From the NCBI GenBank assembly GCA_964619975.1, contig CAZUIY010000341.1, forward strand, positions 1,393-65,392: a stretch of 64,000 nt of DNA, written 5' to 3'. Source of the stretch: an uncultured Gemmatimonadales bacterium (lineage in GTDB: Bacteria; Gemmatimonadota; Gemmatimonadetes; JACCXV01; JAHWKZ01). Made by a program: the position numbers and the translations under genes. Under the pieces are notes generated by a model. It saw only the letters and a list, made by a program, of their open reading frames with translations. It did no database searches and was not told the origin of the DNA. Shown here one piece after another: positions 3,784 through 61,464 of the stretch (position 1 is its first letter; every line of letters starts with the position of its first letter).

Positions 3784-6700
3784 GTGTTCGAGGTAGGAGC
3801 CATCCGGGCGCGACTGGGCGCCGACGTCGAGGAGCTTGGCTTTAAGCGCTACGACAAGCTGCACCAGTCGGCGCAGCGCCAGGCCAGCAGGCCCGTCGTG
3901 GCGACCCTCGGCGGCGCGCTGGAGGAGGGCGACTTCCGAAAGTACGAGCGCGAGGTGGCGGAGGCGCGCCGCGAGGCGACGACGCCCGTGGAGGTGACGC
4001 TGTCCGGCGACCTGGACAACGTCGTCTTCGGAAAGTACGACAAGGCGGTGTCGGGCGCGCGCCAGAAGGCGTCGAAGCCGGTCGAGGTGACGCTGGGGGC
4101 GGACCTAGACGACGGCGGGTTCGACGACTGGGAGGCGGAGCTCGCGAAGGCGCGCACCGAGTCCAAGGCGCCGGTCGAGGCCGAGCTGGGCGCCGACGTC
4201 AACCGACGCGGCTTCCGCGCCTACGAGCGCCACGTGCGCGAGGCCGAGCAGCTGGGCCGCGAGCGCGAGGCACTGAAGGCCAAGCTGGGCGCCGACGTCG
4301 ACGAGGCCGGGTTCCGCGCGTACCGGCGCGCCGTGCGCGGCGCGGAGGGCGACTCGCACCGGCTCGGGCGGGCCGTCAGCAACATGGGCCGCCGGATCGG
4401 CGACGCCATTCCGTCGGTGAACTTTCAGACCCGCATCCCGTTCTACCTAGTGACGGCGTTCGTAGCCGCGCTGGCGGCGGGCATCCCCGTGCTGGTCGCG
4501 TTCAGCGGTGCGCTTGGGCCGATTCTCGGGCAGCTTGCGGCCATTCCGGGACTGGCCACGATCGCCGGCGGCGCGCTCGTGACGGCCATGCTGGGGCTAA
4601 AGGGCGTAATCGGCACCGTGGGCGAGGCGTGGGAGATGGAGCAGACCGCAGCCTCTGACGCCGTGGACACGTCGCGCGCGGCCGAGGCGGCCGCCGAGTC
4701 CGTGCGGGGGGCGCAGGAGGCGGCGGCCGACACCGAGCGGGACGTGACGCGCGCCAGGCGCGAGCTGACCGAGGCGACCGAGGACCAGCGCGAGGAGCTG
4801 AGCCGGATGCGCCTGGAGGCCGAGGGCGCGGTGATCGCCGAGTCCGAGGCGGCGCAGGCGCTGCGGCGCGCCCGCCAGCAGCTGATCGCCGCCGAGACGG
4901 ACCCGCGATCGACAGCGCTCGACATTCGCGAGGCCGAGACGGCCATCGACCGCGCCCGCCTCGGGCTGCGCGAGGCGCGCGGGGAGCGCGCGGACCTAGA
5001 GCGAGAGGTCCAGGCGGCTGACCAGCAGGGGGTTCGCCGCTCCGACCGCGTGGTGGCCGCGAGGGAGCGGCTGGCGGACGCCGAGCGCGCCGCCGAGCGC
5101 GCCACCCGCCGGGTGTCGATCGCGGCGCGCGACGCGAACCGCACGCTGACCGACGCGAGCGGCGGCGCCGAGAAGTTCCAGGAGGAGATGGCGAAGCTGT
5201 CGCCCGCCGGCCAAAACTTCGTCCGCCTGATCCAAAATCGCTTCTTTCCGATGCTGCGCGGGCTTCGCGCGGAGGCGCAGGAGGGCCTGCTGCCGGGGCT
5301 GGGCGACGGGCTGGTTGCCGCGTCCGCGAACTTCCCGGTCATCGAGGACATGGTGCGGAACTACTCCGACGCCCTTGGCGACGCGGCGCGCGAGCAGGGA
5401 GAGCTGTTCGGCTCGCAGAACCAGGGAAGGGACATGGCGACGATCTTCGGCTTCGGCGAGACGCTGATTCGGCGCTCGTCGCACGCGACCGCGGACTGGA
5501 CGCGCGGACTCACGCACCTGATGGTCGCGGCCGAGCCCCTGTACGACTGGCTGGGGCGGATCAACATGCGCCTGGCGGACTCGTTCGAGAGCTGGGCCGA
5601 GGGCGGTCGCCAGTCCGGCAGGCTGGAGCGCTTCTTCCGCGTCGCGACCAAGAACACGGAGCTGTTCGTGGGCACGCTCTGGGACACCGGGCGGGCGCTC
5701 ATCAACATCGGCGGCATCGGGCGGCGGGTCTGGGGCCAGGACATGCTCGGCGGGATCAGAGACGTGGCGCGCGAGTTTCGCGAGTGGACCGAGTCGGTTG
5801 AGGGGGAGCGCTCGATCGAGCGCTACTTCGTGCGCTGGCGTCGGCGATGGGAGGCGATAACCGAGTACATCGGAAGCGCGGTGAGCGAGTACCGTCGGCT
5901 GAAGCGACAGGGCATGACGACCACGGAGGCGCTTGCCACCATCTTGACCGAGCGACTGGGCGAGGCGTTCGGCGAGGTGGTCGCGATCGCCGTGAGTCAG
6001 GGTCCGCGCGTGGCGCGCGGGTTCGCCGAGGGCTTTCTGAAGGCGAACGTGTGGGGCAAGCTCATCATCGGTGCCTGGCTCATCAGCAAGCTCGGCGGCG
6101 GCCGCGCGATCAACGCGATAGGCAGCAGGATCGGTGGCCGCGTGGCCGACAGCTTCGTCGGCAGCATGATCGCCGGCGTCGAGGCGAAGCAGGGGGCGTT
6201 GCGAGGCGTGGGGCGCCGGGCCGGACGGTGGATCGGCCGCGGGCTGCTGATCGGCATCGCCGCCGGTGCCGTGCTCGGCTACGACGAGGTCAAGGACGAG
6301 CTGGCCGACGTCGCGTCCCAGATAAACGACGCCCTCTTCGGCGACAAGGTGGGCGGCTTCCTGTCGGACATTCGGAAGCGGCTCGACCCGACCGGCGGCG
6401 GCTACGGCGGCAGGGACGGCGGCGAGGTCACCCCGCGCGGCATCCAGCGGTTCGCGCTCGGCGGCCCCGTCATGCCGCTCCCGCCCGGCGAGGACACCTG
6501 GGCCGCGCTCCGCTACGGCGAGTTCGTCATGAAGCGCGAAGCGGTGCAGCGGGTGGGCCTGGCCCGGCTGCGCGCCATGAACGAGGGCCAGGGCGGCAGC
6601 GGCGCGGTCGACGCCGTGGCGGGAGACCTGATGACGATCGCGGCGGCTGGCGCGGCGGCGGGGCAGTCGGCCGCGGAAGCGCTCACCGAGGGCCTGGCCG

Positions 6701-9495
6701 GCGGACGCGCGCCGGCAAAGCGCGCGACCGGGGAGCTGCGCAAGGACGTGGGCGGCGAGCTCGATGAGCTGTCGGACGACGCCCGGGTCAGCGCCAAGCG
6801 GTTGCGGGACGGGCTGGTAGACAACGTGGGCGAGGCGTCGGTGGCCGCGGATCGCGAGGTGCGATCGATGCGCCGCGACGTGACGCGCCAGATCGACGGC
6901 CTCGCGGACGAGGCCAGCACGCGCACCCGGCGCCTGGCGACGACGTTCGATGGCGAGTTCGGCGAGATGCACGAGTCGGCCGGCGCGACCATGCGCGGGA
7001 TCGTCGGCGTGACGGGCCGGCGGCTCGCGGAGACCGAGGGCGTCACGCGGACCAGCACGCGCGGCATCCGAAACGTCCTCGCGGACTCCTACGAGTCGAT
7101 GAACCGCGCCGTGTCCACCGGCCTTGGCTACGTGCAGCGCGCCACCTCCAAGGCGCTGGTGGGCCTCGGGGGCGATCCGGTGCGCCTGGAGGTCCCGCGC
7201 CCGGGCAAGCTCGCGACGGGCGGCTACGTGGGGGTGCCGGGCGAGCGCGGCATCGACGATCAGCTGTACCTGCTGGGGCGCGGCGAGGCCGTGCTGAACC
7301 ACCACCAGCAGAGCCGCGCGGACGATCTGCTGGGCTACTTCGGCACGTCGCTTAACGACATCATCGGGAGCGACCAGCGCCTGCACTACGCGGCGACGGG
7401 CAAGGCGTCCGAGAAGGGGAGGGGCGGCGGCCTGACCGGCTCGTTCGACGTGGACGGCGCCGGGCCGGGGTTCGTGCCGATGATGCTGCACCTCAACAAG
7501 ATGTTCGGCCCGATCTACGTCATGTCGGGCATGCGGGCGGGATCGACCATCCTCGGCACCGGGCGGCCGTCGAATCACGGCATCGGGCAGGCCGTCGACA
7601 TCACGGCGCCGGGCGGCGAGTACGCGACGCAGTCGAGTCCGATGACCGGCGCGCTCGGCGCGCGCATGGACGCGCTGCACTCCTACATGGGACGGCACTA
7701 CCGGCCGATCCTCCTCGACTTCCTGTGGCGGACCATGACGGGCGGCAACCACTACAACCACATCCACGCGGGGGTCGATCGCAACTGGTCGTTCGACCCG
7801 GACAACATGCGGCAGTTCATCAGCGGCCTCCCCGGGGGCGGGTTCTTCGGCTCGATCCCGAAGGTCAAGGTGAAGGGCGACGACGGACCGCTTCGCGGCA
7901 TCGCCCAGCGCTCGATCAACAAGGTCCGGGACCGGGCGGACAAGTTCCTAAACAAGCGCATGGCGCGGCTGATGCCGAAGGGCTCGCCGGCGGGCGGGCT
8001 GCTGCACTCGGCCTACGACGGGCCGCTCAACCGAACCTTCAAGCAGCACGGCCACCCACCGCCGCCGGGCTCGGCGCAGCTGTCGTCCGGACAGGTCCGC
8101 ACGGCGGCCAGGGCCGGCGGCATTCGGCCGCCCGACGATCGCCACGCCGAGGAGATCAGCCGCGGGGAGTCGACGAACTTCCCCGGCGTCGTGTCGTGGG
8201 ACGGGGGCTACGGCCTCACGCAGATCACGCCGTCGGCGTGGCCGGGCACGTCGCCCCTGCACGGCGTCCTCGGGAAGCTAGGCGGCATCGGCCAGATGCT
8301 AAACCCCGTCAAGAACATGACGATGATGCGCGTGATGATGGGCTACGCGCAGCGCGAGACGGGCAACCGCTTCAAGCCGTGGTACGGCACGAAGTACCTG
8401 ACGGCCGGCCGCGGCCGGCCGCGGCGGGCGGCGGGCGGCAAGAAGGGCGGGATCGGCCAGGCGTTCACGAAGGCGCGCTCGCGGATTAACTCGCGGATCA
8501 AGAAGGCCGGCGGCCCGGGCGAGGGCGACTTCACGCTGGGGAAGTACGAGGGCCGCATCGAGGGCTTGCGCGATGACTATCAGCGCTGGGAGCGCCGATA
8601 CAACGTCAGCGAGGAGCAGCTAGTCCTCGCGCCGGGTGACCGCGGGTACGACGAGTCCTACGCGATCAGCATCGGCCGGTTCGAGACCGACGATGAGGGC
8701 AACCGAGTCGGCCTCAACTACATCGATGAGCGGGCGATCAAGGCGCGCGCCGATGAGCTGACGCACCTGATCGGCATCCAGCGGAAGATAGTTATGACCT
8801 ACACGCGCTACATGAAGGCGGTCGAGCGCATCATCGAGACGTACCGGCGGTCCCGCGCGCGCCTGGCCAAGGTTCTGGCGAAGGCGAAGCCGAACCGGCG
8901 CAAGCGGTACAAGGACGACATTGAGTCGATGGCCAGGCAGCAGGGGGGGTGGGAGTCCGCGCTGGCCGGCCTCGGCAACCAGCGGTTCGACGAGGAAACC
9001 AACCTTATCGCGGATCGGCAGGAGCGCGACGAGCTTCGGCCGACGGCCGAGGACTCGCTCGACGCGCCGACCGAGGTGGAGACCGACGATGCGGACACGG
9101 ACGCGCAGCTCGCGCAGCTACAGGAAAAGCTACGCATCTCGCAGGAGGAGGCGCGGCTGGCCACGGCCGCCGTCACGGCCTTCAGCGGGCCGGGCGACAT
9201 CGGGGCCGGGGGGCCGAACGCGCTGTCTGCGGCCCAAAACCCGCAGGGCGTGCCGGGCTATCAGGGGCCGGGAACTCAGGGCTACGAGATTCGCTCGGAC
9301 GGTCGCATGTACCCGGTGGGGGGATCGGAGCCCGGCTCGCCGTTCGACGGCCAGGGCACGCCGTCGCTGGTCCAGAATAACTACATGCTTTCGCCCAGCG
9401 ACCCCGGCGTCTTGGAAGAGCTCGGTCGAAGCACCGTGGCCGGCATCGGCTATCAGGGCGCGCAGGGCGCGTCGCGAGAGAGGATTGCGAGCTAG
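3784..9495 (+). CDS. tape measure protein with lytic transglycosylase (SLT) and M23 peptidase domains
   Basis: 1903 aa. About five N-terminal tandem repeats of roughly 37 aa (LGADV..GF..Y...V..AR..A..PVEVT). Central transmembrane segments. SLT-like motif (ESTNF...DGGYGLTQIT). M23 motifs (NHGIGQAVDI and NHYNHIHAG). Confidence 0.9.
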   Translation: MFEVGAIRARLGADVEELGFKRYDKLHQSAQRQASRPVVATLGGALEEGDFRKYEREVAEARREATTPVEVTLSGDLDNVVFGKYDKAVSGARQKASKPVEVTLGADLDDGGFDDWEAELAKARTESKAPVEAELGADVNRRGFRAYERHVREAEQLGREREALKAKLGADVDEAGFRAYRRAVRGAEGDSHRLGRAVSNMGRRIGDAIPSVNFQTRIPFYLVTAFVAALAAGIPVLVAFSGALGPILGQLAAIPGLATIAGGALVTAMLGLKGVIGTVGEAWEMEQTAASDAVDTSRAAEAAAESVRGAQEAAADTERDVTRARRELTEATEDQREELSRMRLEAEGAVIAESEAAQALRRARQQLIAAETDPRSTALDIREAETAIDRARLGLREARGERADLEREVQAADQQGVRRSDRVVAARERLADAERAAERATRRVSIAARDANRTLTDASGGAEKFQEEMAKLSPAGQNFVRLIQNRFFPMLRGLRAEAQEGLLPGLGDGLVAASANFPVIEDMVRNYSDALGDAAREQGELFGSQNQGRDMATIFGFGETLIRRSSHATADWTRGLTHLMVAAEPLYDWLGRINMRLADSFESWAEGGRQSGRLERFFRVATKNTELFVGTLWDTGRALINIGGIGRRVWGQDMLGGIRDVAREFREWTESVEGERSIERYFVRWRRRWEAITEYIGSAVSEYRRLKRQGMTTTEALATILTERLGEAFGEVVAIAVSQGPRVARGFAEGFLKANVWGKLIIGAWLISKLGGGRAINAIGSRIGGRVADSFVGSMIAGVEAKQGALRGVGRRAGRWIGRGLLIGIAAGAVLGYDEVKDELADVASQINDALFGDKVGGFLSDIRKRLDPTGGGYGGRDGGEVTPRGIQRFALGGPVMPLPPGEDTWAALRYGEFVMKREAVQRVGLARLRAMNEGQGGSGAVDAVAGDLMTIAAAGAAAGQSAAEALTEGLAGGRAPAKRATGELRKDVGGELDELSDDARVSAKRLRDGLVDNVGEASVAADREVRSMRRDVTRQIDGLADEASTRTRRLATTFDGEFGEMHESAGATMRGIVGVTGRRLAETEGVTRTSTRGIRNVLADSYESMNRAVSTGLGYVQRATSKALVGLGGDPVRLEVPRPGKLATGGYVGVPGERGIDDQLYLLGRGEAVLNHHQQSRADDLLGYFGTSLNDIIGSDQRLHYAATGKASEKGRGGGLTGSFDVDGAGPGFVPMMLHLNKMFGPIYVMSGMRAGSTILGTGRPSNHGIGQAVDITAPGGEYATQSSPMTGALGARMDALHSYMGRHYRPILLDFLWRTMTGGNHYNHIHAGVDRNWSFDPDNMRQFISGLPGGGFFGSIPKVKVKGDDGPLRGIAQRSINKVRDRADKFLNKRMARLMPKGSPAGGLLHSAYDGPLNRTFKQHGHPPPPGSAQLSSGQVRTAARAGGIRPPDDRHAEEISRGESTNFPGVVSWDGGYGLTQITPSAWPGTSPLHGVLGKLGGIGQMLNPVKNMTMMRVMMGYAQRETGNRFKPWYGTKYLTAGRGRPRRAAGGKKGGIGQAFTKARSRINSRIKKAGGPGEGDFTLGKYEGRIEGLRDDYQRWERRYNVSEEQLVLAPGDRGYDESYAISIGRFETDDEGNRVGLNYIDERAIKARADELTHLIGIQRKIVMTYTRYMKAVERIIETYRRSRARLAKVLAKAKPNRRKRYKDDIESMARQQGGWESALAGLGNQRFDEETNLIADRQERDELRPTAEDSLDAPTEVETDDADTDAQLAQLQEKLRISQEEARLATAAVTAFSGPGDIGAGGPNALSAAQNPQGVPGYQGPGTQGYEIRSDGRMYPVGGSEPGSPFDGQGTPSLVQNNYMLSPSDPGVLEELGRSTVAGIGYQGAQGASRERIAS
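3787..4350 (+). repeat. in-frame tandem repeats (about 111 nt per unit) at the 5-prime end of the tape measure gene
   Basis: Repeated peptide LGADxDxxGFxxYxxxVxxARxxAxxPVEVTLG about five times. Confidence 0.6.
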
Positions 9496-19513: not shown

Positions 19514-20024
19514 CGAAGACGAGCAGGGGACGGCGGCAGAGGAGCGGCCGCTGGACGACGCGGCCTCGATCCAGGATCGCGCCGCCAACGGCGAGCACGA
19601 GCAGGACCCGGAGCCGCCCGAGCCGCCGATGGAGGGCGAGGTGCAGCTGTCGATGAACATCGGCGGCATCGTCTCCAACCGCAACGCGCGGAAGGTGGAG
19701 GAGGCGACGCTGCGCCTGCTGGGCGGCAAGCGGCCGATCGGCGGGCTGCTGGACATCGACACCGAGTACGACCTGATCGTGCGCGTGCTGCCGGACCCGC
19801 CCACGCCGAAGGCGAACCGGGACTCGGCGACGCGCAAGACGCAGTCGTTCGACCTCGACCAGCAGGCGCAGGTGCTGCACATCCGGCGCGCCGACGAGGA
19901 GGCCATCGGCGACCTGTTCGCCGGTCTGCTCGATCGAGACCAGGCGGCGGCGGGCCGTCTGCTGGAGGCCATGACGGCCGCGTTCAAGGACGGCGAGGGG
20001 GCGGGCCTGCGGGCGGCCGCCTAG
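19506..20024 (+). CDS. hypothetical acidic protein
   Basis: 172-aa ORF ending just before a double hairpin. Confidence 0.45.
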   Translation: MADEDEQGTAAEERPLDDAASIQDRAANGEHEQDPEPPEPPMEGEVQLSMNIGGIVSNRNARKVEEATLRLLGGKRPIGGLLDIDTEYDLIVRVLPDPPTPKANRDSATRKTQSFDLDQQAQVLHIRRADEEAIGDLFAGLLDRDQAAAGRLLEAMTAAFKDGEGAGLRAAA

Positions 20025-20179: not shown

Positions 20180-21034
20180 GTGAGCGATGAGGCACCTCGG
20201 CGGGACGAGGTGGCGCGCTGGATTCGCCGCCTGCGCCTGGAGCCCGCGCAGAAGCTGATGCTGATGCTGGTTTTCGATCACGCCGGCCCGCAGGAGGACG
20301 GTAGGTGGGCGGCCTGGCCCTCGATGGGCGTACTTGCCGAGGAGGCGGGCTGGTCATCGACGGCGACTCCCCGCAAGCGCCTGGCCGAGCTGGAGGAGCT
20401 AGGCCACCTGATGCGCGAGGGGCGCGAGCGCGGCAACGGCTCGACCACCTCGAACCGGGTGGTGCTGCTGCCCGTTTTGAGCGGCGAACCCGCATCGCCA
20501 AGCCCCGCCACGGGATCGGCGGGGGGCCACCACGGGATCGGCGGGGGGGCCGCCACGGGATCGGCGGCCCATAAGCCCCAAGGTGAAGCAATAACGGGGA
20601 GGGAAGCGCGCGAGCGGGCGGTGGCTAACGGAGACCCGCTGCGGCTGACCTACCGGCGCAAGGTAGTGCCCGAGCCGACAGCGCACATGGCGGTGCGAAT
20701 GTTGAGGGAGTACGCCCGCGCCGCCGACCAGACGGTGCAGGCGTGGAAGCCGAGCGGCGAGCCAACCGAGGACTTGAAGCGGGTGCTGGGGGCGGTGCTC
20801 GACCATCCGGAGGTCGATGGCCGAGAGTGGGTGGGGGTAATTCGCGCGGTGCTGGCTCGCCCGTGGTGGGAGGGCGCGCCGTCGGTGGGCGTGGTGTTCG
20901 GGCCGCGGGTGGTGGCGGACAACCTGCGCAGTCCCGGCCGGGGCGGCGGCAAGCGGAAGACGGCGGCCGTGCAGGCCGTCGACGACAAAGAGGAACGAGC
21001 GCGGCGCCGGCTGGCGGCCGCCGGGAGGTTGTGA
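20180..21034 (+). CDS. helix-turn-helix DNA-binding protein (replication-initiation or regulator-like)
   Basis: 284 aa; N-terminal HTH-like region (LMLMLVFDHAG...GVLAEEAGWSSTATPRKRLAELEELGHL); contains an in-frame tandem repeat. Confidence 0.5.
   Translation: MSDEAPRRDEVARWIRRLRLEPAQKLMLMLVFDHAGPQEDGRWAAWPSMGVLAEEAGWSSTATPRKRLAELEELGHLMREGRERGNGSTTSNRVVLLPVLSGEPASPSPATGSAGGHHGIGGGAATGSAAHKPQGEAITGREARERAVANGDPLRLTYRRKVVPEPTAHMAVRMLREYARAADQTVQAWKPSGEPTEDLKRVLGAVLDHPEVDGREWVGVIRAVLARPWWEGAPSVGVVFGPRVVADNLRSPGRGGGKRKTAAVQAVDDKEERARRRLAAAGRL
20506..20570 (+). repeat. tandem repeat CACGGGATCGGCGG (3 copies, period about 23 nt) inside the HTH protein gene
   Basis: Encodes ATGSAGGHHGIGGGAATGSAAH; the sequence repetition is visible directly. 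Confidence 0.6.
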
Positions 21035-22555: not shown

Positions 22556-23430
22556 GGACCCCGCTGACGTACTACGGGGGGAAGCAGGCGTTGGCGCGCC
22601 AGATCGTCCCGCTGTTCCCGCCGCACCGCTCGTACCTTGAGCCGTTCGCCGGCGGCGCGGCGGTGCTGTTCGCGAAGGCTCCGGCCGAGCGCGAGACGCT
22701 GAACGACCTGGACGGTCAGGTGATGCGCTTCTGGCGAGCGCTTCGCGAGCGCCCCGACGAGCTGGCGGCGGCGGTGGCGGCGACCCCCTACGGCCGTCAG
22801 GAGTGGCGGGTCGCCGAGGCGGTGCGCAAGGGCCGCGCGCCGATGCCCGAGGACGACGTTGAGGCCGCGCGGCTGCTGCTGGCGTGCATCGACCAGTCGT
22901 TCTCGCGCTCGTCGGACGGGTGGTCGGTGCCGTGCATCGGCGACGGACGAGGTCGGTGGCAGCCCGGCTCGTGGGCGAACCTGCCCCCGAAGCTGGTCGC
23001 GGCGGCCGAGCGGCTGCGCAACGTGGCGCTGGAGAGCGGCGACGCCTGCGACCTGATTCCGCGCTGGGACGAGCCCGACGCGCTGCTGTACGTGGACCCG
23101 CCGTACACGGGCGAGCACCGCCGACGCGGGAAGCACGGGTCGGGCGGGATGAACGGCTACCTCGTCGACGACGACGGCAAGCTGTGGGGCCGGCTGGTCG
23201 AGGCGCTGCTGGGCCTGGAGCGCGCGGCGGTGGTCCTGTCCGGCTACCCGTGCGAGGAGGTCGGCGCGCTCGAAGGAGCGGGGTGGCGCCGCGTGCCGCT
23301 GAGGATGAGGCGCACCGTGCAGGAGCGCGGTGGCGACGCCCTGCCGATGGCCCCCGAGGTCGTGTGGCTGAACGAGCGGGTGCCCGACGCCCCGCAGACG
23401 CTGTTCGAGGAGGACGCCCATGAGTGGTGA
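22552..23430 (+). CDS. dam: DNA N6-adenine methyltransferase, Dam (D12 class) family
   Basis: Motifs YYGGK, EPFAGGAAVLF and DPPY (YVDPPYTGEH); GTG start overlapping the upstream stop. Confidence 0.85.
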   Translation: MRTPLTYYGGKQALARQIVPLFPPHRSYLEPFAGGAAVLFAKAPAERETLNDLDGQVMRFWRALRERPDELAAAVAATPYGRQEWRVAEAVRKGRAPMPEDDVEAARLLLACIDQSFSRSSDGWSVPCIGDGRGRWQPGSWANLPPKLVAAAERLRNVALESGDACDLIPRWDEPDALLYVDPPYTGEHRRRGKHGSGGMNGYLVDDDGKLWGRLVEALLGLERAAVVLSGYPCEEVGALEGAGWRRVPLRMRRTVQERGGDALPMAPEVVWLNERVPDAPQTLFEEDAHEW

Positions 23431-23917
23431 CCCGGCACCCGTGGACCTGTTCCACGCCCGCCACCACAAGTTCAAGAGGAAGCCCGGCGGCAAGCGCGGC
23501 TGCGCGGAGTGCGGCGGGGCGAAGCTCCACATGAGCCACGTGGGCGCCCCGCCGTCGCTGAACGTCCACGGGTCTGGCGCAAACGTGTTCACCTACCAGA
23601 CCATGAAGCAGAACTGGATGGAGCGGCTGACGCAGCTGCTGAGGGAGTCCGGGCTGCCGAAGGGCCTGGCCTCGGTCCGCGCGCGCGGCCAAGTGTGCTT
23701 CCCCGACCGCCAGCGCCGCGACCAGGGGAACTTTCGGTTCCTGATCGAGAAGGCCCTGGGCGACGCGCTCGTGAAGGGAGGGTGGCTGGAGGACGACGAC
23801 TGGTCGCGCTACCAGTTCGGCGACCTCGATTACGCCTACGACAAGGGCCAGAGCTGGACGGCGCTGACGATCTTCCCGCAGGGCGTGGAGGCACCCGACG
23901 GGATAGCGGAGGTATAG
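23420..23917 (+). CDS. rusA: RusA-like Holliday junction resolvase
   Basis: RusA catalytic region (PDRQRRDQGNF..IEKALGDALVKGGWLEDDDWS) matches the E. coli RusA pattern PDRRRRDLDN..K..DAL...G...DD. Confidence 0.65.
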   Translation: MSGDPAPVDLFHARHHKFKRKPGGKRGCAECGGAKLHMSHVGAPPSLNVHGSGANVFTYQTMKQNWMERLTQLLRESGLPKGLASVRARGQVCFPDRQRRDQGNFRFLIEKALGDALVKGGWLEDDDWSRYQFGDLDYAYDKGQSWTALTIFPQGVEAPDGIAEV

Positions 23918-23954: not shown

Positions 23955-24404
23955 ATGATTGACCTCGATCGCGCGCTCCACGAGGCGCGCGACAAGCTGG
24001 ACAACGGCTCGCCGGCGAGCGCCGTGGAGGTGTTGCGCGACCTGACCGAGGCGGTGCAGAGCCGACGCGCCTCGGCGCGCCACCACGCCGACCGCATCCT
24101 GCGCGCCAGTGACGGCGACGAGGAGTGCCGCGACACGGTGGTCGACGACGCGGTGGCGCTCGCGGAGGGCGTGGCGATGCTGCCGCGCGTGGAGCTGATG
24201 GGCGAGGTTGAGGTGGCGGTCGCGGCGGGAGTCGCCGTGCGGTCGACGCCGCTGGCGGCTGTTCACTACGAGCTTGACCAAATCGCAAATCTTCCCGACC
24301 CTGTCGCGACGCTGGTCGCCGGACGGGTGTGGCTGGCGGACGACATACGGGCGCTGGTGCGCGAGCGCCTGAAGACCAACAACGACGAGAAGGGAACGAG
24401 CTGA
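23955..24404 (+). CDS. hypothetical protein
   Basis: 149-aa ORF downstream of P1 with a good SD. Confidence 0.45.
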   Translation: MIDLDRALHEARDKLDNGSPASAVEVLRDLTEAVQSRRASARHHADRILRASDGDEECRDTVVDDAVALAEGVAMLPRVELMGEVEVAVAAGVAVRSTPLAAVHYELDQIANLPDPVATLVAGRVWLADDIRALVRERLKTNNDEKGTS

Positions 24405-25363
24405 TGGCCGGACAGAGGACGACCCTGTCGCTGGGCGGGGTGGCGGCAGAGGTGTCGCTGGTGAAGATGAGCGGCAAGCCGAAGGACGCGCAGCACGAGG
24501 TGAGGTGGCCGGACCCGCCGGTCGGCGCGCCCGAGGGCGAGGGCGACCCGGTCGGCGATCTGGCCATGTCGTCGTTCGAGACCAAGGGCGACGCCGGCAC
24601 GAGCGGGCCGGGTGCCCCTCCGCCGGTCGACGTCGGCAGGGGCGACCCGCTCGGGGGGACCGAGCCGGAGGACCCTGCCGCCGGCTTCGCCGCGGCCGTG
24701 GGCGTGGGCGGCTCGGTCGAGCCGCCCCCCGAGCCGGTCAAGCCGATGCACGGCGTGACGCTGGAGTCCGGCAAGTGGGTGGACCTCACGGACCGCCTGG
24801 AGCAGATCGACGAGGCGTGCAAGCTGCCGGGCATGGAGGTCGTCTCCACGGTGCCGAGCGCGTCGATCCCGCGCGAGCGGGTGGTGGCCGCCAGCTGGGT
24901 GGCCAGCACGGACCCGCGCGCGGCGCGGGTGCTCGCCCTCCTGTGGCGCGGCCTCGACTCCACGACCCGCGTGGCGGCGGTGCGCTGGACGAAGCGGACG
25001 AACCAGGCGCTCGGCGTGCTCGTGCCCCGCACGCTGCCGGGCGGCAAGCGCGCCCTGGCCCTGCTGGAGATGGAGTGGGCCGAGAACATGCGGCCCGCGC
25101 CAGCATCGGCCACCGGCCCGATGGACGCGGACGTGTCGGACGCGGAGATGGACGCGGCGAAGCGGCTGGTCGAGGCGCTGGCCGGGAAGCCGTCGGAGCT
25201 CGACGAGCTGCGCGACGAGCGGCTGGCCAAGCGCGCGGAGCTGCTCAACCTGGCCCGCGAGGGCAAGGTCGAGGGGTACGTGGCGCCGGAGCCGCCAGCC
25301 GACGCCGAGCCGGTCGAGGACGTGGTCGCGCGCTGGGAGGCGCAGGCGGCCGCGCGATCCTGA
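24404..25363 (+). CDS. ku: Ku-like DNA end-binding protein (with about 100-aa Gly/Pro-rich insertion)
   Basis: The N-terminus (TLSLGGVAAEVSLVKM) resembles the first Ku beta-strand (SIAFGLVNVPVKVY). Core similarity to Mt-Ku across GKWVDLTDRLEQI ... ALLEMEWAENMR (Ku: LLWPDEIR) is judged from memory only. Confidence 0.45.
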   Translation: MAGQRTTLSLGGVAAEVSLVKMSGKPKDAQHEVRWPDPPVGAPEGEGDPVGDLAMSSFETKGDAGTSGPGAPPPVDVGRGDPLGGTEPEDPAAGFAAAVGVGGSVEPPPEPVKPMHGVTLESGKWVDLTDRLEQIDEACKLPGMEVVSTVPSASIPRERVVAASWVASTDPRAARVLALLWRGLDSTTRVAAVRWTKRTNQALGVLVPRTLPGGKRALALLEMEWAENMRPAPASATGPMDADVSDAEMDAAKRLVEALAGKPSELDELRDERLAKRAELLNLAREGKVEGYVAPEPPADAEPVEDVVARWEAQAAARS

Positions 25364-26900: not shown

Positions 26901-27403
26901 CGCGCCGCGAGGGCCGGGCGCTGCTGGTGGGCGAGTCGCCGTGTCGGGGGGCCAGGCCCGGCGGCCGCGCGCTCGACGGGCCGGCGGGCGATCGGCTGGC
27001 GAGCTACCTCGGCGCGCTTCCCGGCTACATCCACTGCGACAGGCACGCGCTGCTGGAGGAGTTCGACACGGTGAACCTGCTGGGCCGGTGGCCGGGCAGC
27101 CAGGGCAAGGGCGCGGCCTGGTCGCCCACGAAGGCTAGGAGGGCGGCGGGACGACTTCCCCTCCGGGGCGTGGTGGTCCTGCTGGGCCAGCGCGTCGCCA
27201 ACGCCTATCAGCTAGGCGGCCTGTGCTGGGCGCACTGGCTGCATACCCCGGCCGGCGCTTGGGTCACGGCGATTCCCCATCCGTCGGGCGTGAACCGCCT
27301 ATACAACGATGAGGCCATGCGTGCGCTGGTGGCCGAGGTGCTGCACGGCGCGCGCGTCGCCGCCCGGGACGCCCGCCCGCCCGCGCTCGTTCGCCGCAAA
27401 TAG
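26879..27403 (+). CDS. uracil-DNA glycosylase superfamily protein (family 4/5-like)
   Basis: N-terminal GESPCRGARPGGRALDGPAGDRL (compare GEAPG...G.PF.G.AG..L) and C-terminal HPSG motif (IPHPSGVNRLYN). Confidence 0.5.
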   Translation, partial: GVPGRRLTRREGRALLVGESPCRGARPGGRALDGPAGDRLASYLGALPGYIHCDRHALLEEFDTVNLLGRWPGSQGKGAAWSPTKARRAAGRLPLRGVVVLLGQRVANAYQLGGLCWAHWLHTPAGAWVTAIPHPSGVNRLYNDEAMRALVAEVLHGARVAARDARPPALVRRK

Positions 27404-27425
27404 CGGGGCCGTCGGGCATCGTCGT

Positions 27426-27471
27426 TGCGGCGTGCGGGTGGTGGTCTGTAGCCTCGACGCCGTACCCGATT
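27426..27471 (+). promoter_or_regulatory. promoter P2 of the conserved family (-35 TTGCGG, 18-bp spacer, -10 TAGCCT, leader GTACCCGAT)
   Basis: Directly visible; SD GAGGAT, then GTG 27486. Confidence 0.6.
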
Positions 27472-27485
27472 TTGAGGATGGCTCA

Positions 27486-28728
27486 GTGCATGAACTTCCC
27501 AGCCTGCTTACCGGACCGCACGATGCGCGGCTCGACGATCCACCCCGCGTCCTGTCGGTCTGCTCGGGCGTCGGCGGCATGGACCTCGGGTTCCATCGCG
27601 CGGGCTTCCGCACGGTCGGGCTGTGCGAGTGGGAGCCGTGGCGGCGGAAGGTCCTCGCGCGCCACTGGGGCGACGGCGTCCCGATCTATCCCGACCTCGC
27701 GGCGCTCGCCGATCGCGCCGAGCGGGACCCCGACGACCTACTCGCCGAGCTCGGGGGTCGCGTAGATGTCCTCATCGGCGGTACCCCCTGCCAAGACCTC
27801 AGCCACGCCGGCAAGCGAGCCGGACTCGACGGCGAGCGCTCCGGACTCTTCTGGAGTTACTGCCGACTCCGAAACGCCCTCGGCATCGAGTGGTGCGTCT
27901 GGGAGAACGTGGCAGGGGCTCAGACCTCCAACCAGGGACTGGACTTCGCATCGGTCCTGGGCGCCTTCGTGGGAGCAACCGTCGCTGTTCCCTCCGCCGG
28001 ATGGGGAGGCGCTGGTGTGGCAGCCGGGCCGTGGGGGGGCTGCGTCTGGCGACGCCTCAACGCTCAACACTTCGGAGTCCCCCAGCGTCGGCGTCGCGTC
28101 TTCGTTGTCGGACGCCTTGGAGGCCCTTGTCCACCCGCGGTTCTCATTGAGCGCGAAGGCGTGCGCGGGAATCCTCAAGCGGGCGGTGCGGCGCGGCCGG
28201 GACCTGCCTGGGCCGCTGCGGCTCGCGCTGGAGGGCCAGGCCGGACCGAACTGGCAGGAGGTGGACGACCTGGAGGCCGAGATGGCGCTGGAGGCGCTGA
28301 CGCTGGACGTGGACCCGCCCCAGCCATCCGAGCGAGCGCCGGAAAGAACGCCTACAGCCCCGGACACTCCGGAGGCGACGAGGCAGTGTTCGCCGTCGCC
28401 GGAGCCCTCGACGCCAGCGACGGGGGAGCCGACGACAACGACGCCAGAGCCGGACGAATCGTCACAGGTGGCGCCCAGCCTGACGATGAGGTACGGGGCC
28501 AGCGGCGGCAACGATCTTCAACAGCCGAACGCGCTGGTGGAGGACCCGACGATCGGGTTTCACATCCACGAGAGGATGGACGTGCCGAGGGACGACGCGC
28601 AGGCTCCGACGCTGATGAAGTCGGCGAGTCCGGGGGCGAACGCGCCGGGCGGCCTGCGGAAGCTGACTCCGACAGAGTGCGAGCGCCTGATGGGCTGGCC
28701 GGACGGCTGGACGGTGCTGCTGAAGTAG
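27486..28728 (+). CDS. DNA (cytosine-5)-methyltransferase with interrupted reading frame: motifs I-VIII in frame 0, motif IX in frame +1
   Basis: Motif I CSGVGGMDLGF; motif IV GTPCQDLSHAGKR; motif VI ENV; motif VIII FGVPQRRRRVFVVG (all in the frame of 27486). Motif IX RKLTPTECERLMGWPDGWT sits in the +1 frame and ends at the stop at 28728. Candidate shift sites are 28100-28135 or the G4 run at about 28495-28498. Confidence 0.6.
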
Positions 28729-28793
28729 AGGCGTACACGGAGCGAACCCGCGACGGCGTGAGCACTCCCGAGCGGGTGGACCTTCCGTGCCTG

Positions 28794-29387
28794 ATGGGCC
28801 ACACGGGGAAGGGCGGCGGCGGTCACGATCACTTCATTCGTCAGCCCGCTATGCCCGTCAGCCTGCGGGGCCGCGAGGGCGGCGCGACAGCCGAGGTCGC
28901 CGCCGACGACGCCTCGCCGTCACTTCGGGGCAGCGGCGGCGGCGGCAGTCGTCAGCACGTCTTGGTCGGCTCGGACGAGGCTACGCACACGCTGACCGCC
29001 GAGGGCCACGACGCGAGCGAGGACGGCACGGGCCGAGGCGCGCCGATCGTGCTCGCGGAGAACCAGCGCGGCGAGCTCCGCACGCCGGACGTGGTGCCGT
29101 TGCTTAGCGGGCAGGGCGGGGGGAAGCCGGGCCAGGGGCGCCCGGTGACGTGGAGCAATCTGAGCAACGGCGGGGCGAACGACGACCAGGCGGCGACGCT
29201 CGACACGTCGCACGGAGGGGGTCAGGCGCTCATGGCGGGCGCGGCCGAGGGGGCGGCGTGCGGTCATGATCCCAAGCCGGATGGGCAGCGCTACGCGGCG
29301 TGCGGCGATGGGGTGGCGGCCCCGGTCGCGCACTGGATTGGACTGCGCCTCGGGCCGGCGATCGCGGAGGCGCGGAGTGATGGGTGA
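28794..29387 (+). CDS. methyltransferase C-terminal-like fragment (DASEDGTGRG block, ENQRGELR, degenerate motif IX, motif X-like)
   Basis: Frame-0 ORF after the motif-IX stop. Contains HTLTAEGHDASEDGTGRGAPIVLAENQRGELR, GQGGGKPGQGRPV and C-terminal QRYAACGDGVAAPVAHWIGLRL (motif X with GN changed to GD). May be the displaced 3-prime part of the same MTase gene. Confidence 0.4.
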   Translation: MGHTGKGGGGHDHFIRQPAMPVSLRGREGGATAEVAADDASPSLRGSGGGGSRQHVLVGSDEATHTLTAEGHDASEDGTGRGAPIVLAENQRGELRTPDVVPLLSGQGGGKPGQGRPVTWSNLSNGGANDDQAATLDTSHGGGQALMAGAAEGAACGHDPKPDGQRYAACGDGVAAPVAHWIGLRLGPAIAEARSDG

Positions 29388-36178: not shown

Positions 36179-36408
36179 CCTCTGATTGCCGAAGGGTGGT
36201 GGTGGCGTTGCGTCGAGGCCCGGCCATGATGTCGGCGCTGGCGCTGTTCACCGATCTGGCACACACGCGACTCGACAAGGCGATACGAGAGGCGTTGCGC
36301 AAGGACTACGTGGTGACGAACGGCGCGATTCCGCCGGCCTACCTGTTAACGGGCGAGGGCGAGCGACAGGCGCGGGCCAGGCGCGACGAGGTGGTTAGCG
36401 ATGGGTGA
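36175..36408 (+). CDS. small winged-helix-like DNA-binding protein
   Basis: 77 aa; ATGA overlap. Confidence 0.35.
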   Translation: MTSDCRRVVVALRRGPAMMSALALFTDLAHTRLDKAIREALRKDYVVTNGAIPPAYLLTGEGERQARARRDEVVSDG

Positions 36409-37351
36409 CGGCTCCAAGATTGAGTGGACCGAGGCGACGTGGAACCCCGTCACGGGGTGCTCGAAGGTGTCGCCCGGCTGCGCCCACTGCTACGCGGAGG
36501 CGGTGACGGCCAGGTACGCCGGCTCGCCGGGCTGGATCGCGGAGCACCGGCCGTGGACCCCGGAGAACGCCGAGCACAACCTGACGGTTTGGCCCGAGCG
36601 CCTGGATCAGCCGCTGCGGTGGCGGCGGCCGCGCATGGTCTTCGTGAACTCCATGAGCGACCTGTTCCACGAGCTGCTGCCGGAGGAGTTCATCGCCGAC
36701 GTGTTCGCGGTCATGGCGATCGCGAAGCAGCACACGTTCCAAGTCCTGACTAAGCGGCCGGACCGGATGCGCGACGTGCTCAACGATGAATGCTGGCCGC
36801 TGCTGTTGAGCGCCGCCCTGCAAAAGCGCGGTGCCGAGCCGATACCGAACCTCTTTGAGGACGATCGAGTGTCGGTGCTTCCAAACGTGTGGCTCGGCAC
36901 GTCGATCGAGAACCGGCAGTTCACGCAACGCGCCGACGCGCTGCGCGCCGCGCCGGCCGCGGTCAGGTTCATCAGCGCCGAGCCCCTGCTGGGATCGCTA
37001 ATCGCCCCGCCGTGCGATCGCAACTGGTACGGCGAGTGCAAGGGGTGGGTGGAAAACGATGGCTGTCGCAGCTGCCCGCGAACGCAGCGCCAAGCCGGCA
37101 AGAGCGCCGTGCGTCGCGAGCCGACGCCCAGCCTGGACCTGACCGCGATTGATTGGCTGATCGTTGGCGGGGAGTCCGGCAAGGGTCACCGCCCCATGCG
37201 GGTCGAGTGGGCGCGCGACCTTCGCGACGCGGCGGCGCGCGCCGGCACCGCGTTTTTCTTCAAGCAGTGGGGCGGCCACACGCCGACGGCCGGCGGGCGC
37301 GTGCTCGACGGCCGGCTGCACGATGCGATGCCGGAGGGCGCGTCGTCGTGA
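36401..37351 (+). CDS. phage Gp37/Gp68 family protein (DUF5131, three-Cys motif)
   Basis: N-terminal signature KIEWTEATWNPVTGCSKVSPGCAHCYAE and the conserved WLIVGGESG region. Confidence 0.65.
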   Translation: MGDGSKIEWTEATWNPVTGCSKVSPGCAHCYAEAVTARYAGSPGWIAEHRPWTPENAEHNLTVWPERLDQPLRWRRPRMVFVNSMSDLFHELLPEEFIADVFAVMAIAKQHTFQVLTKRPDRMRDVLNDECWPLLLSAALQKRGAEPIPNLFEDDRVSVLPNVWLGTSIENRQFTQRADALRAAPAAVRFISAEPLLGSLIAPPCDRNWYGECKGWVENDGCRSCPRTQRQAGKSAVRREPTPSLDLTAIDWLIVGGESGKGHRPMRVEWARDLRDAAARAGTAFFFKQWGGHTPTAGGRVLDGRLHDAMPEGASS

Positions 37352-38963: not shown

Positions 38964-39280
38964 GGGACGTTCGGCCCACCCCGCCCGACGCTGCCGAGCA
39001 GGTGGCGGCGCTGCCGAGGCGCACCGCCCACGCCGCCCACGCGCTGCTGGCGTGCTGCGCGGACATGCGAGGCCCGGCGAAGGTGAACGAGGTCATCATG
39101 TACGACGCGGAGGCGCTGAGCACGCGCGCCACGGCGGCGGCGCTGAGCGGCGCCAGGCGGGCCAGGCTCGCCGACTACTGGGGGCGCGGCGTGTGGGTGC
39201 CGACGATCCACGCGCACGACCTGCGCGCGGCGCTGGAGGATCGCTTCCTGGCGGATACCGAGCGCGAAGGTGACGGATGA
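38960..39280 (+). CDS. hypothetical protein
   Basis: 106 codons; GTGA overlap. Confidence 0.35.
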   Translation: MRDVRPTPPDAAEQVAALPRRTAHAAHALLACCADMRGPAKVNEVIMYDAEALSTRATAAALSGARRARLADYWGRGVWVPTIHAHDLRAALEDRFLADTEREGDG

Positions 39281-40095
39281 GCGTGGCGGCCATCGCGGAG
39301 CGCGCCACGCGTCGGGACCTCGACGGGCTGGTGCGCGGGGCGTCTCGGCTGGCTCCGAGCCGCGAGGACGCCGAGGACGCGGTGCAGGAGGCGTGGGCGC
39401 AGCTGCTTGAGCGCGAGCGGCGCGGCCACGAGTTCGACGCGGCCGGGCTGGGCCTGGTGGCGCACGGCGCGCGCAGCCGGGCGATCGACGCGCACCGCCG
39501 CCGGGTCGGCCGCGGCGAGCGGTCGCTGGACCGCATGGTCGAGGACGCGGGCGACGCCGGATCCGCGCGCGCGCCCGACGCGCTGCTGGATCAGGTGGAG
39601 GCGCGCCTGGCCCTGCGCGAGCTCGCGGCCGAGGCGCCCGGCGGGCGCGCGGCGCTCAAGCTGGCGCGCAAGCGGCTGGGGGAGTTCGTGCGCTTCGAGC
39701 CGGACGAGGTGGTGGACTCGGTGCGCGGCTTCGTGGAGCGCCACGGCTACGTGCCCACGTGCGAGCAGTTCTGCGCCGACCCGCTCTGTCCGTCGTGGAT
39801 CGTGGTCCACCGCTGCTTTACGAGGTGGTCGGCGCTGATGCGGGAGGCGGGCTACGAGGTCTACGACAAGAGCACGACGGCCGCGCGGCGCGACGACGCG
39901 CTCGTGGCGGAGGTGGCCGCGCTGGCGCGGCGCGAGGGCACCGTGTCGCAGAGGATGCTGCGCGAGAGGATGGGCCTGGGGTGGAAGTGCGCGCGCCGGC
40001 TGGTGGCCAGGCTGGAGGCCGAGGGCGTGGTGGGACCGCATCCCGGCGGCAACGCCCCGAGGAAGTTGCTCGCGCCGGCTTGCGTTTCTTCGTAG
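39277..40095 (+). CDS. fusion protein: ECF-sigma-like N-terminus + HEARO repeat + FtsK-gamma-like winged helix
   Basis: Sigma region-2-like DAEDAVQEAWAQLLE...AIDAHRRRVGRGERSLD. HEARO-like HGYVPTCEQFCADPLCPSWIVVHRCFTRWSALMREAGYEV. C-terminal SQRMLRERMGLGWKCARRLVARLEAEGVVGPHPGGNAPRKLLAP matches FtsK gamma ([40 protein letters not shown]). Confidence 0.55.
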   Translation: MSVAAIAERATRRDLDGLVRGASRLAPSREDAEDAVQEAWAQLLERERRGHEFDAAGLGLVAHGARSRAIDAHRRRVGRGERSLDRMVEDAGDAGSARAPDALLDQVEARLALRELAAEAPGGRAALKLARKRLGEFVRFEPDEVVDSVRGFVERHGYVPTCEQFCADPLCPSWIVVHRCFTRWSALMREAGYEVYDKSTTAARRDDALVAEVAALARREGTVSQRMLRERMGLGWKCARRLVARLEAEGVVGPHPGGNAPRKLLAPACVSS

Positions 40096-52049: not shown

Positions 52050-52523
52050 ATGGGCAACTGGAGAACCGTGACGATCGTGGGCTCGTGCCCGCCCGGCGAG
52101 GTCGAGGAGCTGCGCGACTTCCTCAAGGCGGCGGGCGACTTCATGGTGCCCGACTCGAAGAAGCCGTACGACGCCGCGGCGCTGGCGGACGCCTTCCCGC
52201 TCAACATGAGCAACGGCCTGGCGGGGCTGGGCCACTGGCTCGGCGACGGCGAGCTGATCGACGCGTCCGGCAACCTCGGCGAGCGCGACTACGGCGTGGA
52301 GAGCGTCGCGAAGGCGCTGCGGGCGATGGTCGCGTTCGCGCCGGGCCTGCGGCTCAAGGTGCACTGCGGCGACGAGTGGGAGGCGGCGAACTGCGTCGCG
52401 ACCGTCGTGCTGGAGGGCGGCGAGGTGGAGGTGCGCCCGCCGGAGGTCGAGACGGTGCGCGGCGCGTCGCCGGACGAGATGAAGGGTCGCCTGTACGACT
52501 CGCTCATGGGCGGCGGCGCGTGA
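52050..52523 (+). CDS. hypothetical protein
   Basis: 157 aa. Confidence 0.45.
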   Translation: MGNWRTVTIVGSCPPGEVEELRDFLKAAGDFMVPDSKKPYDAAALADAFPLNMSNGLAGLGHWLGDGELIDASGNLGERDYGVESVAKALRAMVAFAPGLRLKVHCGDEWEAANCVATVVLEGGEVEVRPPEVETVRGASPDEMKGRLYDSLMGGGA

Positions 52524-53098
52524 CGGGCGACGTGGCGCGGGCGCAGACGCGCACGGCGATGGAGACGGCGAGCGGCCACTTCTTCGACTTGGCCGACCCG
52601 CGGCCGGAGGACGTGTGGCTGGAGGACGTGGCGCACGCGCTGTCGCTGACGTGCCGGTACGCCGGCCAGTGCGAGCGGTTCTACTCCGTGGCCGAGCACG
52701 CCTGCCTGGTCGCGTGGCGACTGGAGGGCCTGGGATACCCGCCGAAGGTGGTGCTGCGCGGCCTGCACCACGACTCCGCGGAGGCGTACTGCGGCGACGT
52801 GACGCACCCGCTGAAGTGCGTGCTGCCGGAGTACGCGGCGATCGAGGCGCGCGTGCAGGGGGCGGTGGACGTGGGGCTGGGCCTGGCGATCCTTAGCGAT
52901 CACGAGCTCACGTCGATCAAGGACGCGGACGACTGGGCGCTGTTCGTGGAGGCGGCGCAGCTGATGCCGAGCGGCGGCCGCGACTGGTCGGACGCGCCGA
53001 GCGAGGTCGACGGGTCGCCGTGGGAGTTGGGCTGGTCGCCGGCCGAGGCCGAGACGACGTTCCTGGCTGAGCACTACCGGCTAGATCGGGGGCGCTGA
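52520..53098 (+). CDS. HD-domain metal-dependent phosphohydrolase (YfbR-like 5-prime-deoxynucleotidase family)
   Basis: HD motif LHHDSAEAYCGD preceded by YSVAEHACLVA; about 190 aa. Confidence 0.55.
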   Translation: MTGDVARAQTRTAMETASGHFFDLADPRPEDVWLEDVAHALSLTCRYAGQCERFYSVAEHACLVAWRLEGLGYPPKVVLRGLHHDSAEAYCGDVTHPLKCVLPEYAAIEARVQGAVDVGLGLAILSDHELTSIKDADDWALFVEAAQLMPSGGRDWSDAPSEVDGSPWELGWSPAEAETTFLAEHYRLDRGR

Positions 53099-61266: not shown

Positions 61267-61433
61267 GCGGGCGGCGCTTCTGGCTCGTGGTCGCGTCGGC
61301 GTGGCTGGCGGCGCAGGGCTGGGCGAACCTGTGCTTCGCCGGGTGGACCGCGCAGGGCGTGATGAGCCTGCTGATCGGATCGGCGATGGCCACCGCCGCG
61401 GGCGTCGCGTGGGAGCGCGCCTGGCGGTCGTAA
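61263..61433 (+). CDS. small membrane peptide
   Basis: 56 codons; WLVVASAWLAAQGWANLCFAGW. Confidence 0.3.
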   Translation: MSGRRFWLVVASAWLAAQGWANLCFAGWTAQGVMSLLIGSAMATAAGVAWERAWRS

Positions 61434-61464
61434 CGACGCGATCACGGGGGTAGCCTTCTCGGCC

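Follow-up and report, generated by a model that had tools for sequence, protein, structure and literature searches.

Cryo-electron microscopy of the Ku protein of Mycobacterium tuberculosis (Mtb) has defined a bridge, residues 23-91, whose three hairpins interdigitate with the other protomer, and the loop of hairpin 1 was found to mediate dimer-dimer synapsis (PMC12784962). A probable metal site is built from His35 of one protomer together with Cys48 and Cys51 of the other (PMC12658125), and the C-terminal contacts with the ligase LigD are known from nuclear magnetic resonance and mutagenesis (bioRxiv 10.64898/2025.12.12.693941). Phages carry such proteins as well. The mycobacteriophages Omega and Corndog circularise with their own Ku and the LigD of the host, according to the account of Pitcher et al. 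(2006) that is cited in PMC12848934. Gam of phage Mu is a Ku homologue that blocks loading of RecBCD, and end-binding proteins of this kind are common phage tools (PMC12407980). Here we analyze a Ku-family gene in a 64,000-nucleotide stretch of DNA, hereafter the window, taken from contig CAZUIY010000341.1 of an assembly assigned to an uncultured Gemmatimonadales bacterium (GCA_964619975.1). The gene product is a genuine member of the Ku superfamily, though it is not an ordinary bacterial Ku: alignments and structure models indicate that part of the ring-closing bridge is substituted by a disordered acidic linker.

Family membership and relatives of the window Ku

Profile and structure searches consistently identified the protein as a Ku. 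Pfam PF02735 was matched with E=3.2e-10 (40.7 bits against a gathering cut-off of 25), with residues 126-249 aligned to profile positions 64-188 of 190, and the PHROG 4873 family, annotated as Ku-like DNA end binding, was matched with E=2.2e-10. A phmmer comparison with the solved Mtb Ku covered residues 134-319 (E=4.6e-6). The family profile raised this match to 1.2e-10 and also reached Ku of B. subtilis and human Ku80, while hhalign covered Mtb residues 66-260 with a probability of 92.5%. An AlphaFold2 model was computed from a clade alignment of 39 sequences, the window protein and 38 homologues. Its mean predicted local distance difference test (pLDDT) score is 84.6 and reaches 92-98 in the core. 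When this model was compared with the PDB using Foldseek, the best 50 matches were all Ku chains, led by apo Mtb Ku (E=4.2e-10, TM score 0.54 on the target). Among viral structures (BFVD), the sole significant match was the Ku of the Corndog-type phage Dylan.

The evidence for the N-terminus is of a different kind. Statistically, likeness of the N-terminal strand to Ku could not be detected, as the hhalign and hmmsearch alignments begin around residue 115-120, which corresponds to Mtb residue 66. Because these programs could not align the first 115 residues, Ku similarity in this part rests on the structure model and on a MAFFT alignment. The modelled N-terminal hairpin is equivalent to Mtb residues ~5-21, and Gly11 of the window Ku, which is invariant in the clade, aligns with the invariant Gly12 of canonical (Mtb) Ku.

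The gene is a single open reading frame (ORF) that starts with ATG and stops at 25361-25363. The ATG shares bases with the stop codon of the preceding ORF (TGATG), and a Shine-Dalgarno-like AAGGGA lies ~9 nt 5' of it. An alternative, longer frame could begin at GTG 24329. Met1 and the N-terminal MA(ER)GQRTTL are, however, kept in the alignment by all homologues (38/38), and we therefore consider 24404 to be the true start. Two artefacts that could explain the linker, a wrongly joined ORF or translation in another reading frame, were ruled out by a G+C content at third codon positions (GC3) of 0.95 when the linker is read in frame, and by the conserved single-ORF architecture.

Relatives of the protein are numerous in environmental data. 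A word-indexed search returned 39 of them, all from metagenomes, with 33-54% identity and lengths of 212-440 aa; a precomputed PF02735 match exists for 36 of these 39 other homologues. A profile search of 1.84 billion representatives gave 1,118 hits; 201 clusters reached E<=1e-30 and 367 reached E<=1e-10, so that the clade comprises, as a lower bound, at least 201 clusters at 50% identity. Lengths are 268-425 aa for the clusters at E<=1e-30 and 166-425 aa for the best 150 profile matches. Genomes representing 185,579 bacterial and archaeal species, one per species, contained no close relative when scanned with the Ku alignment, and no relative of the Cas4-like nuclease encoded in the same window was found in this genome set either. 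Since relatives of neither protein turned up there, the lineage is not known as a prophage. A plasmid collection contained only weak matches, to canonical Streptomyces Ku, with 28-34% identity over the core only. Finally, tblastn of the window Ku against 50,697 phage records gave one weak match, in WXIN (30% identity, E=3e-4). Canonical Ku is present in 88 of these records, 87 of which are mycobacteriophages; in the 41 phage records listed, it is collinear with Mtb Ku, except for an N-terminal fragment in phage Nebkiss. We conclude that the clade is a deep, phage-restricted Ku lineage, known only from uncultured high-GC phages and lying outside the mycobacteriophage precedent.

A disordered linker in the bridge region

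All 39 aligned sequences share the same layout: a conserved N-terminus of ~40 aa, an unalignable linker of 39-189 aa, and a conserved core with the C-terminal region. Across the clade the linkers measure ~35-190 aa. Ala, Pro, Glu and Asp predominate in them, and their median net charge is -9. The window linker of 79 aa (P17, G16, A9, V8, D7, E7) carries a net charge of -11 and is predicted to be disordered, with block-mean pLDDT values of 42-60 over residues 41-100.

To locate the linker with respect to the canonical fold, we used a multiple alignment with Ku of Mtb, Omega (gp206) and Corndog (gp87). The N-terminal hairpin of the window Ku sits on canonical hairpin 1, and its HEVRW corresponds to the first strand of hairpin 2. 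The linker falls where the other three proteins carry the return strand of hairpin 2 and the CExCGE segment. The Cys pair is gone and the inter-protomer H35/C48/C51 site is without counterpart. In the model, the only ordered parts of the bridge region are residues 32-34, which form its first strand, and residues 115-127, which form its last hairpin. The linker of the divergent member P0039 contains canonical-looking strands (RYRRVLVEE...), and we considered that bridge hairpins might fold within it. Despite these strands, the AlphaFold2 monomer model revealed no folding, and the linker of this protein was disordered too. All models are monomers, in which strands arising only in the dimer would not show. 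As judged from alignment and models, the linker has not simply been added after the first strand but stands in for part of the ring-closing bridge.

Although the linkers cannot be aligned, a short motif recurs in them, with the consensus [AVG]-D-P-[LF]-G-[EDG]-[PD]. DP[LFVMI][GA] occurs 40 times in 32 of the 39 linkers, compared to 2.2 +/- 1.5 times in composition-preserving shuffles, none of which (0/2000) reached 40. In 100 further representatives outside the discovery set we counted 47 occurrences against 3.6 +/- 1.9 in shuffles, and 29 against 0.5 for the strict form DP[LF]G. The enrichment in clade linkers is thus more than tenfold, in counts that are inflated by kinship among the sequences. 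Recurrence within otherwise unalignable sequence is what one usually sees with short linear docking motifs. The motif is missing from about half of the clade representatives, and hence it is not essential to the core function. We asked whether DP[LF]G in other proteins of the window might hint at a shared docking partner. Within the window proteome (~20,300 aa of ORFs) no second instance was found besides residues 81-84 of the Ku itself.

These results can be set against a preliminary description of this DNA, which had called the product a Ku-like protein with a large low-complexity segment. PF02735 (above its gathering cut-off), PHROG 4873, the phmmer match to Mtb Ku, the AlphaFold2 model and Foldseek all agree with this, and the pairing of LEMEWAENMR with LLWPDEIR that had been pointed out is present in the phmmer alignment to Mtb Ku. 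The description had extended the Ku likeness to the N-terminal strand. By sequence it holds for the core and is statistically undetectable for the strand, where the modelled hairpin at residues 4-19 and the Gly11/Gly12 pair lend it support. An extra segment of about 100 aa is correct if counted from the end of the first hairpin to the core; its low-complexity part is 79 aa, and the net excess over Mtb Ku is ~54 aa. The idea of a simple insertion after the first strand has to be given up, as the segment replaces the return strand of hairpin 2 and the H35/C48/C51 site. Likewise, the implied equivalence with the Ku of Omega and Corndog goes too far, since the window Ku is only remotely related to them.

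Gene neighbourhood of the window Ku

The positions of the gene, of the parts of its product and of the main neighbouring genes are collected in the table.

Table. Features of the Ku-family gene and of its genomic surroundings; positions refer to the window.
Feature	Position	Strand	Basis or remark
Ku-family gene, 319 aa plus stop	24404..25363	+	PF02735, PHROG 4873, phmmer match to Mtb Ku, Foldseek
N-terminal beta-hairpin 1, residues 4-19, TTLSLGGVAAEVSLV	24413..24460	+	AlphaFold2 strands 4-10 and 13-19, pLDDT ~90
Disordered acidic Pro/Gly-rich linker (predicted), residues 36-114	24509..24745	+	Composition, charge, pLDDT, alignments
First motif copy, DPVG, residues 48-51	24545..24556	+	Motif census, shuffle test
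Second motif copy, DPLG, residues 81-84	24644..24655	+	Motif census
Conserved Ku core, residues 115-260: beta-barrel strands, helices, invariant VRWTKRTNQALG strand pair	24746..25183	+	pLDDT 92-98, PF02735, hhalign
C-terminal helical region, last helix 307-318, EDVVARWEAQAAARS; aligns with the LigD-binding stretch of Mtb Ku	25184..25360	+	phmmer, hhalign
RecT annealase	15953-17224	+	Pfam RecT, E=1.6e-20
PD-(D/E)XK Cas4-like exonuclease	17267-18628	+	Pfam PDDEXK_1, E=1.7e-16
HTH_36 protein, lambda-O-like replication initiator	20180-21034	+	Several PHROG 'replication initiation protein / O-like' families, best E=8e-9
RusA-like Holliday junction resolvase	23420..23917	+	PHROG 34, E=8e-9
Cys-rich protein, repeated CxxC, C-terminal helix-turn-helix-like segment	25944..26900 (open from 25365, start uncertain, 25944 likely)	+	ORF
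HNH endonuclease	60622-61266	+	Followed by small ORFs, then terminase
Large terminase subunit, N-terminus	63429 to window end	+	ORF

The window has 72% G+C, and all of its ~106 predicted genes lie on the plus strand. A 1,903-aa ORF (3784-9495) without family match is taken as the tape measure by size and position alone. The window also codes for an amidase endolysin, methylases, an HNH endonuclease and the large terminase subunit. With this one-strand arrangement, including tape measure, endolysin and terminase, the window represents a tailed-phage genome. Deposited phage genomes (50,697) contained no relative when 20-30 kb of the window were compared by megablast, and tblastn of the Cas4-like nuclease, a tail protein and the endolysin against the same set gave no matches.

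Upstream of the Ku gene lies a set of recombination genes. The Cas4-like nuclease has four Cys residues (C89, C333, C336 and C342) that are invariant between the window and the related loci L001, L003 and L004. This pattern is consistent with an iron-sulfur cluster nuclease of the Cas4/AddB type that may act as the exonuclease partner of RecT. Both RecT and the nuclease accompany Ku in the window and in L003, L004 and L009. L001 and L005, whose stored stretches start with the nuclease gene or a short way upstream of it, showed only the nuclease together with Ku. Two further IMG/VR loci that carry the nuclease have no Ku within 10 kb. The Ku homologues generally sit in phage-like contigs with one-strand gene arrays, and in four related loci (L001, L002, L003 and L006) a RusA-like gene precedes the Ku gene by 0.8-2.4 kb. 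Homologues of the Cys-rich protein are encoded directly downstream of Ku in L001, L002 and L006. This conserved position makes the protein, for which no Pfam or PHROG match was obtained, a candidate functional partner of Ku. In the most divergent loci a gene for single-stranded DNA-binding protein abuts Ku with a stop/start overlap (L004, 6664-8078; L005, 5400-6814). PTPS and GTP cyclohydrolase I genes follow less than 3 kb downstream of Ku in L004 and L005; these are enzymes of the queuosine/7-deazaguanine precursor pathway.

Replication probably proceeds by drawing the host replisome to an origin through the O-like initiator, as its family matches suggest. No DNA polymerase was detected among the 109 ORFs of the window, an absence that is common at this phage size. 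The preliminary description had placed the Ku gene in a phage together with RecT, the Cas4-like nuclease, RusA and DnaQ, had found no DNA polymerase, and had called phage Ku genes rare. All of this was borne out: the ~106 one-strand genes with tape measure, endolysin and large terminase subunit are those of a phage, the RusA-like resolvase and DnaQ-like exonuclease genes are present with the other two, and the census of phage records given above confirms the rarity. Its proposal of a life cycle dependent on recombination and end joining was over-read. The O-like initiator suggests that the host replisome copies the phage genome from an origin in the ordinary way, and this weakens the claim of dependence.

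An HNH gene beside the terminase gene (region 60622-63998) is an arrangement known from cos-packaging phages such as HK97. Because these genes stand at the end of the window and the window starts in tail genes, the physical ends (cos or pac) are probably inside the window, at ~61.3-63.4 kb, and the source record is probably permuted or assembled across joined ends.

Further observations concern other parts of the window. In the cytosine-C5 methylase region (27309-29387), GC3 indicates two changes of coding frame. Frame 0 is used to ~27,950, frame 1 at ~27,975-28,728, and frame 0 again at ~28,730-29,387. The first part is the N-terminal half matching Pfam DNA_methylase (residues 80-269), the frame 1 segment contains SAKACAGILKRA and TECERLMGWPDGWT, and the last part contains AENQRGE and GDGVAAPVAHWIG. 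The 692-aa ORF of frame 0 is open throughout and of low complexity in its middle, and in L001 the frame 1 segment is also conserved, in a frame other than that of the annotated methylase gene. The region could hold a split or multi-subunit methylase, a conserved frameshift pair or an inserted gene. A deoxyribonucleoside 5'-monophosphate phosphatase is encoded at 52520-53098 (PHROG 318, E=8e-47). In combination with the genes for Dam, Dcm and DUF5131 (36401-37351) it is a hint of functions in DNA modification or in the nucleotide pool. The protein encoded at 39277-40095 has a C-terminal winged helix of the FtsK-gamma type (E=6.7e-9) and also a weak match to sigma-70 region 2, which is an unusual pairing for a phage regulator. 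A tRNA-like element reported by ARAGORN at 19797-19868 on the minus strand, with an undetermined two-base anticodon, lies inside a plus-strand ORF and is probably a false positive.

Possible roles at DNA ends and comparison with known systems

A circular template is plausibly needed by this phage, because neither ligase nor polymerase is detectable, an O-like initiator is present and the HNH gene adjoins the terminase gene. The most economical reading is that the Ku would protect and align the ends and bring in the ligase of the host. With confidence just above even, we favour the view that the protein is a divergent, phage-specific Ku that binds, protects and bridges DNA ends and recruits a host ligase for circularisation. 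By homology, and from the conservation of core and sling, it would form a homodimer through the barrel and the 'sling' helices, and the dimer would be expected to load onto double-stranded DNA ends. Such ends may be the termini of the injected linear genome, or may arise later through host nucleases or as replication and packaging intermediates. Binding would shield them from host exonucleases and keep two ends together, possibly bridged through the conserved loop of hairpin 1. The C-terminal helix might recruit an ATP-dependent ligase of the host (LigD or LigC type) to seal the ends, and the sealed circle would be the template needed by the O-like initiator. More speculatively, the acidic, motif-bearing linker may be a flexible arm on which a further partner docks, or may regulate electrostatically how DNA enters beside the ring opening.

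Both the phmmer and the hhalign alignment extend to the final residue of the window Ku, and its C-terminus aligns with Mtb residues 244-263. Equivalents of the LigD-contacting residues E246, V248, D250, A261, R262 and S263 are kept, and the C-terminal consensus of the clade, DLAxALAAxA, resembles the canonical DLLAKLEAS. The basic, Lys-rich C-terminal tail present in the Ku of Omega and Corndog is absent. No ligase family was matched by the 109 window ORFs, nor by ten further ORFs checked against PHROGs, and none was found in the flanks of related Ku loci. Since no phage ligase was found, this phage would, like Omega and Corndog, depend on an enzyme of the host. The Ku proteins of these two phages are only remote relatives, and a LigD-dependent circularisation role is therefore something that we infer rather than a finding.

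Several observations weigh against the proposed recruitment of a host ligase by an end-encircling Ku. The equivalog cut-off of NCBIfam TIGR02772 is not reached (46.3 against 150 bits), and the match covers residues 115-296 only. A stretch of the bridge stays unstructured in both monomer models, and the H35/C48/C51 site is missing, so that closure of the ring is no more than putative. At the C-terminus, the LigD-relevant residues S258 and K260 are replaced by Q and A, respectively, and the chain ends before the equivalent of N266. About 8 kb of the source contig (72,337 bp) lie beyond the window and could encode a ligase. Recruitment further presupposes a host with LigD, and no host was traced in the scan of 185,579 species genomes. 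Finally, the rationale for Omega and Corndog depends on very short overhangs, which this phage may not share.

The partial conservation of the LigD contacts and the missing basic tail would also suit a protein that only protects ends. Such a factor, acting like Gam, would cap the ends against RecBCD or AdnAB of the host and recruit no ligase. It would guard the injected genome as well as rolling-circle tails, favouring the RecT/exonuclease pathway of the phage, a part comparable to that of Gam beside Exo and Bet in lambda. The consistent linkage of Ku with RecT, the PD-(D/E)XK exonuclease and RusA in the window and its relatives fits this picture, and Mu Gam, itself a Ku homologue, stops RecBCD from loading (PMC12407980). 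We nevertheless regard this explanation, the most serious competitor of the favoured view, as possible rather than probable. The window protein is a full-length bacterial-type Ku without a Pfam match to Gam, its sole viral structural match is a mycobacteriophage Ku, and the clade keeps the C-terminal helix that serves ligase recruitment in bacterial Ku. Moreover, end protection and ligase recruitment are compatible with each other.

The altered bridge allows for a broader interpretation. In the clade, the metal-stapled bridge may have given way to a disordered, acidic and fast-evolving tether bearing DP[LF]G, which would define an undescribed architectural class of Ku. As a recruitment hub, or as a gated or side-loading clamp, such a protein might let uncultured actinophages take over or inactivate a specific host factor of repair or defence. 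We put this forward tentatively and consider it rather unlikely. A stronger version is improbable, namely that the Ku scaffold has been re-purposed with an open ring, that without an ordered bridge the dimer need not thread onto an end and works as a side clamp on DNA or as a hub that captures a host repair or defence factor, and that the protein serves in hijacking or counter-defence instead of end joining. In favour of this version, a disordered linker takes the place of the metal site and of the return strand of hairpin 2 throughout the clade, and this linker, though acidic and hypervariable, still shows the enrichment expected of a docking motif. However, the motif is missing from about half of the representatives and so cannot be essential to the core function, strands formed only in the dimer would be invisible in our monomer models, conservation is strong in the core and in the bridge hairpin that is left, and the partner is hypothetical. 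A recently captured, host-derived passenger ku or an artefact of fused ORFs, without specific role in the phage, is very improbable and largely refuted. In its favour stand the nearest canonical relatives in the plasmid collection, which are Streptomyces Ku proteins matching over the core only. Against it, close relatives are missing from the 185,579 species genomes, the clade is deep and consistently phage-borne, and the single-ORF layout and start codon are conserved with a coding signal unbroken across the linker.

Until now, phage Ku was little more than an oddity confined to two clusters of mycobacteriophages. Here it appears as a separate and much more diverse lineage of at least 200 clusters, in phages without a cultured relative, and the clade departs structurally exactly at the ring-closing element of Ku. 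If these proteins still ring DNA ends, the strategy in which the phage brings Ku and the host brings the ligase extends well beyond mycobacteria. If they do not, they represent a natural experiment on the purpose of the Ku bridge. In either case, DP[LF]G in a disordered acidic arm provides a testable handle for a host partner, and minimal end-binding proteins would be useful as tools, for instance in the labelling of breaks or for better end joining in genome editing of actinomycetes.

Compared with known systems, the window Ku shares its fold and domain order (N-terminal hairpin, beta-barrel core, helical 'sling', C-terminal helix) with bacterial Ku, represented by Rv0937c of M. tuberculosis (PDB 8V53/9I91/9IG8) and YkoV of B. 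subtilis (PDB 9VNQ). Its identity to Mtb Ku is 23% over 214 structurally aligned columns. It differs in that the disordered acidic linker replaces a bridge segment corresponding to about Mtb 36-60, in the loss of H35/C48/C51 and of a basic C-terminal extension, and in being phage-borne without adjacent ligD. Mu Gam is a Ku-superfamily phage protein that guards DNA ends from RecBCD and may be a functional analogue. With ~174 aa it is far shorter, whereas the window Ku has the full bacterial architecture. A Gam identity was rejected at the family level, as no Gam match was obtained in Pfam, PHROG or BFVD searches. Omega gp206 (cluster J) and Corndog gp87 (cluster O) are, like the window Ku, phage-encoded Ku proteins of the bacterial type, and their expected role at phage genome ends resembles the one proposed here. 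They are collinear with Mtb Ku without insertion (34-51% identity, residues 1-262) and keep the CxxC, an essentially host-identical C-terminal DVSDLLAKLEAS and basic tails, in all of which the window Ku differs. Unlike the genes in the Omega or Corndog contexts, it is embedded in a module of RecT, Cas4-like nuclease and RusA.

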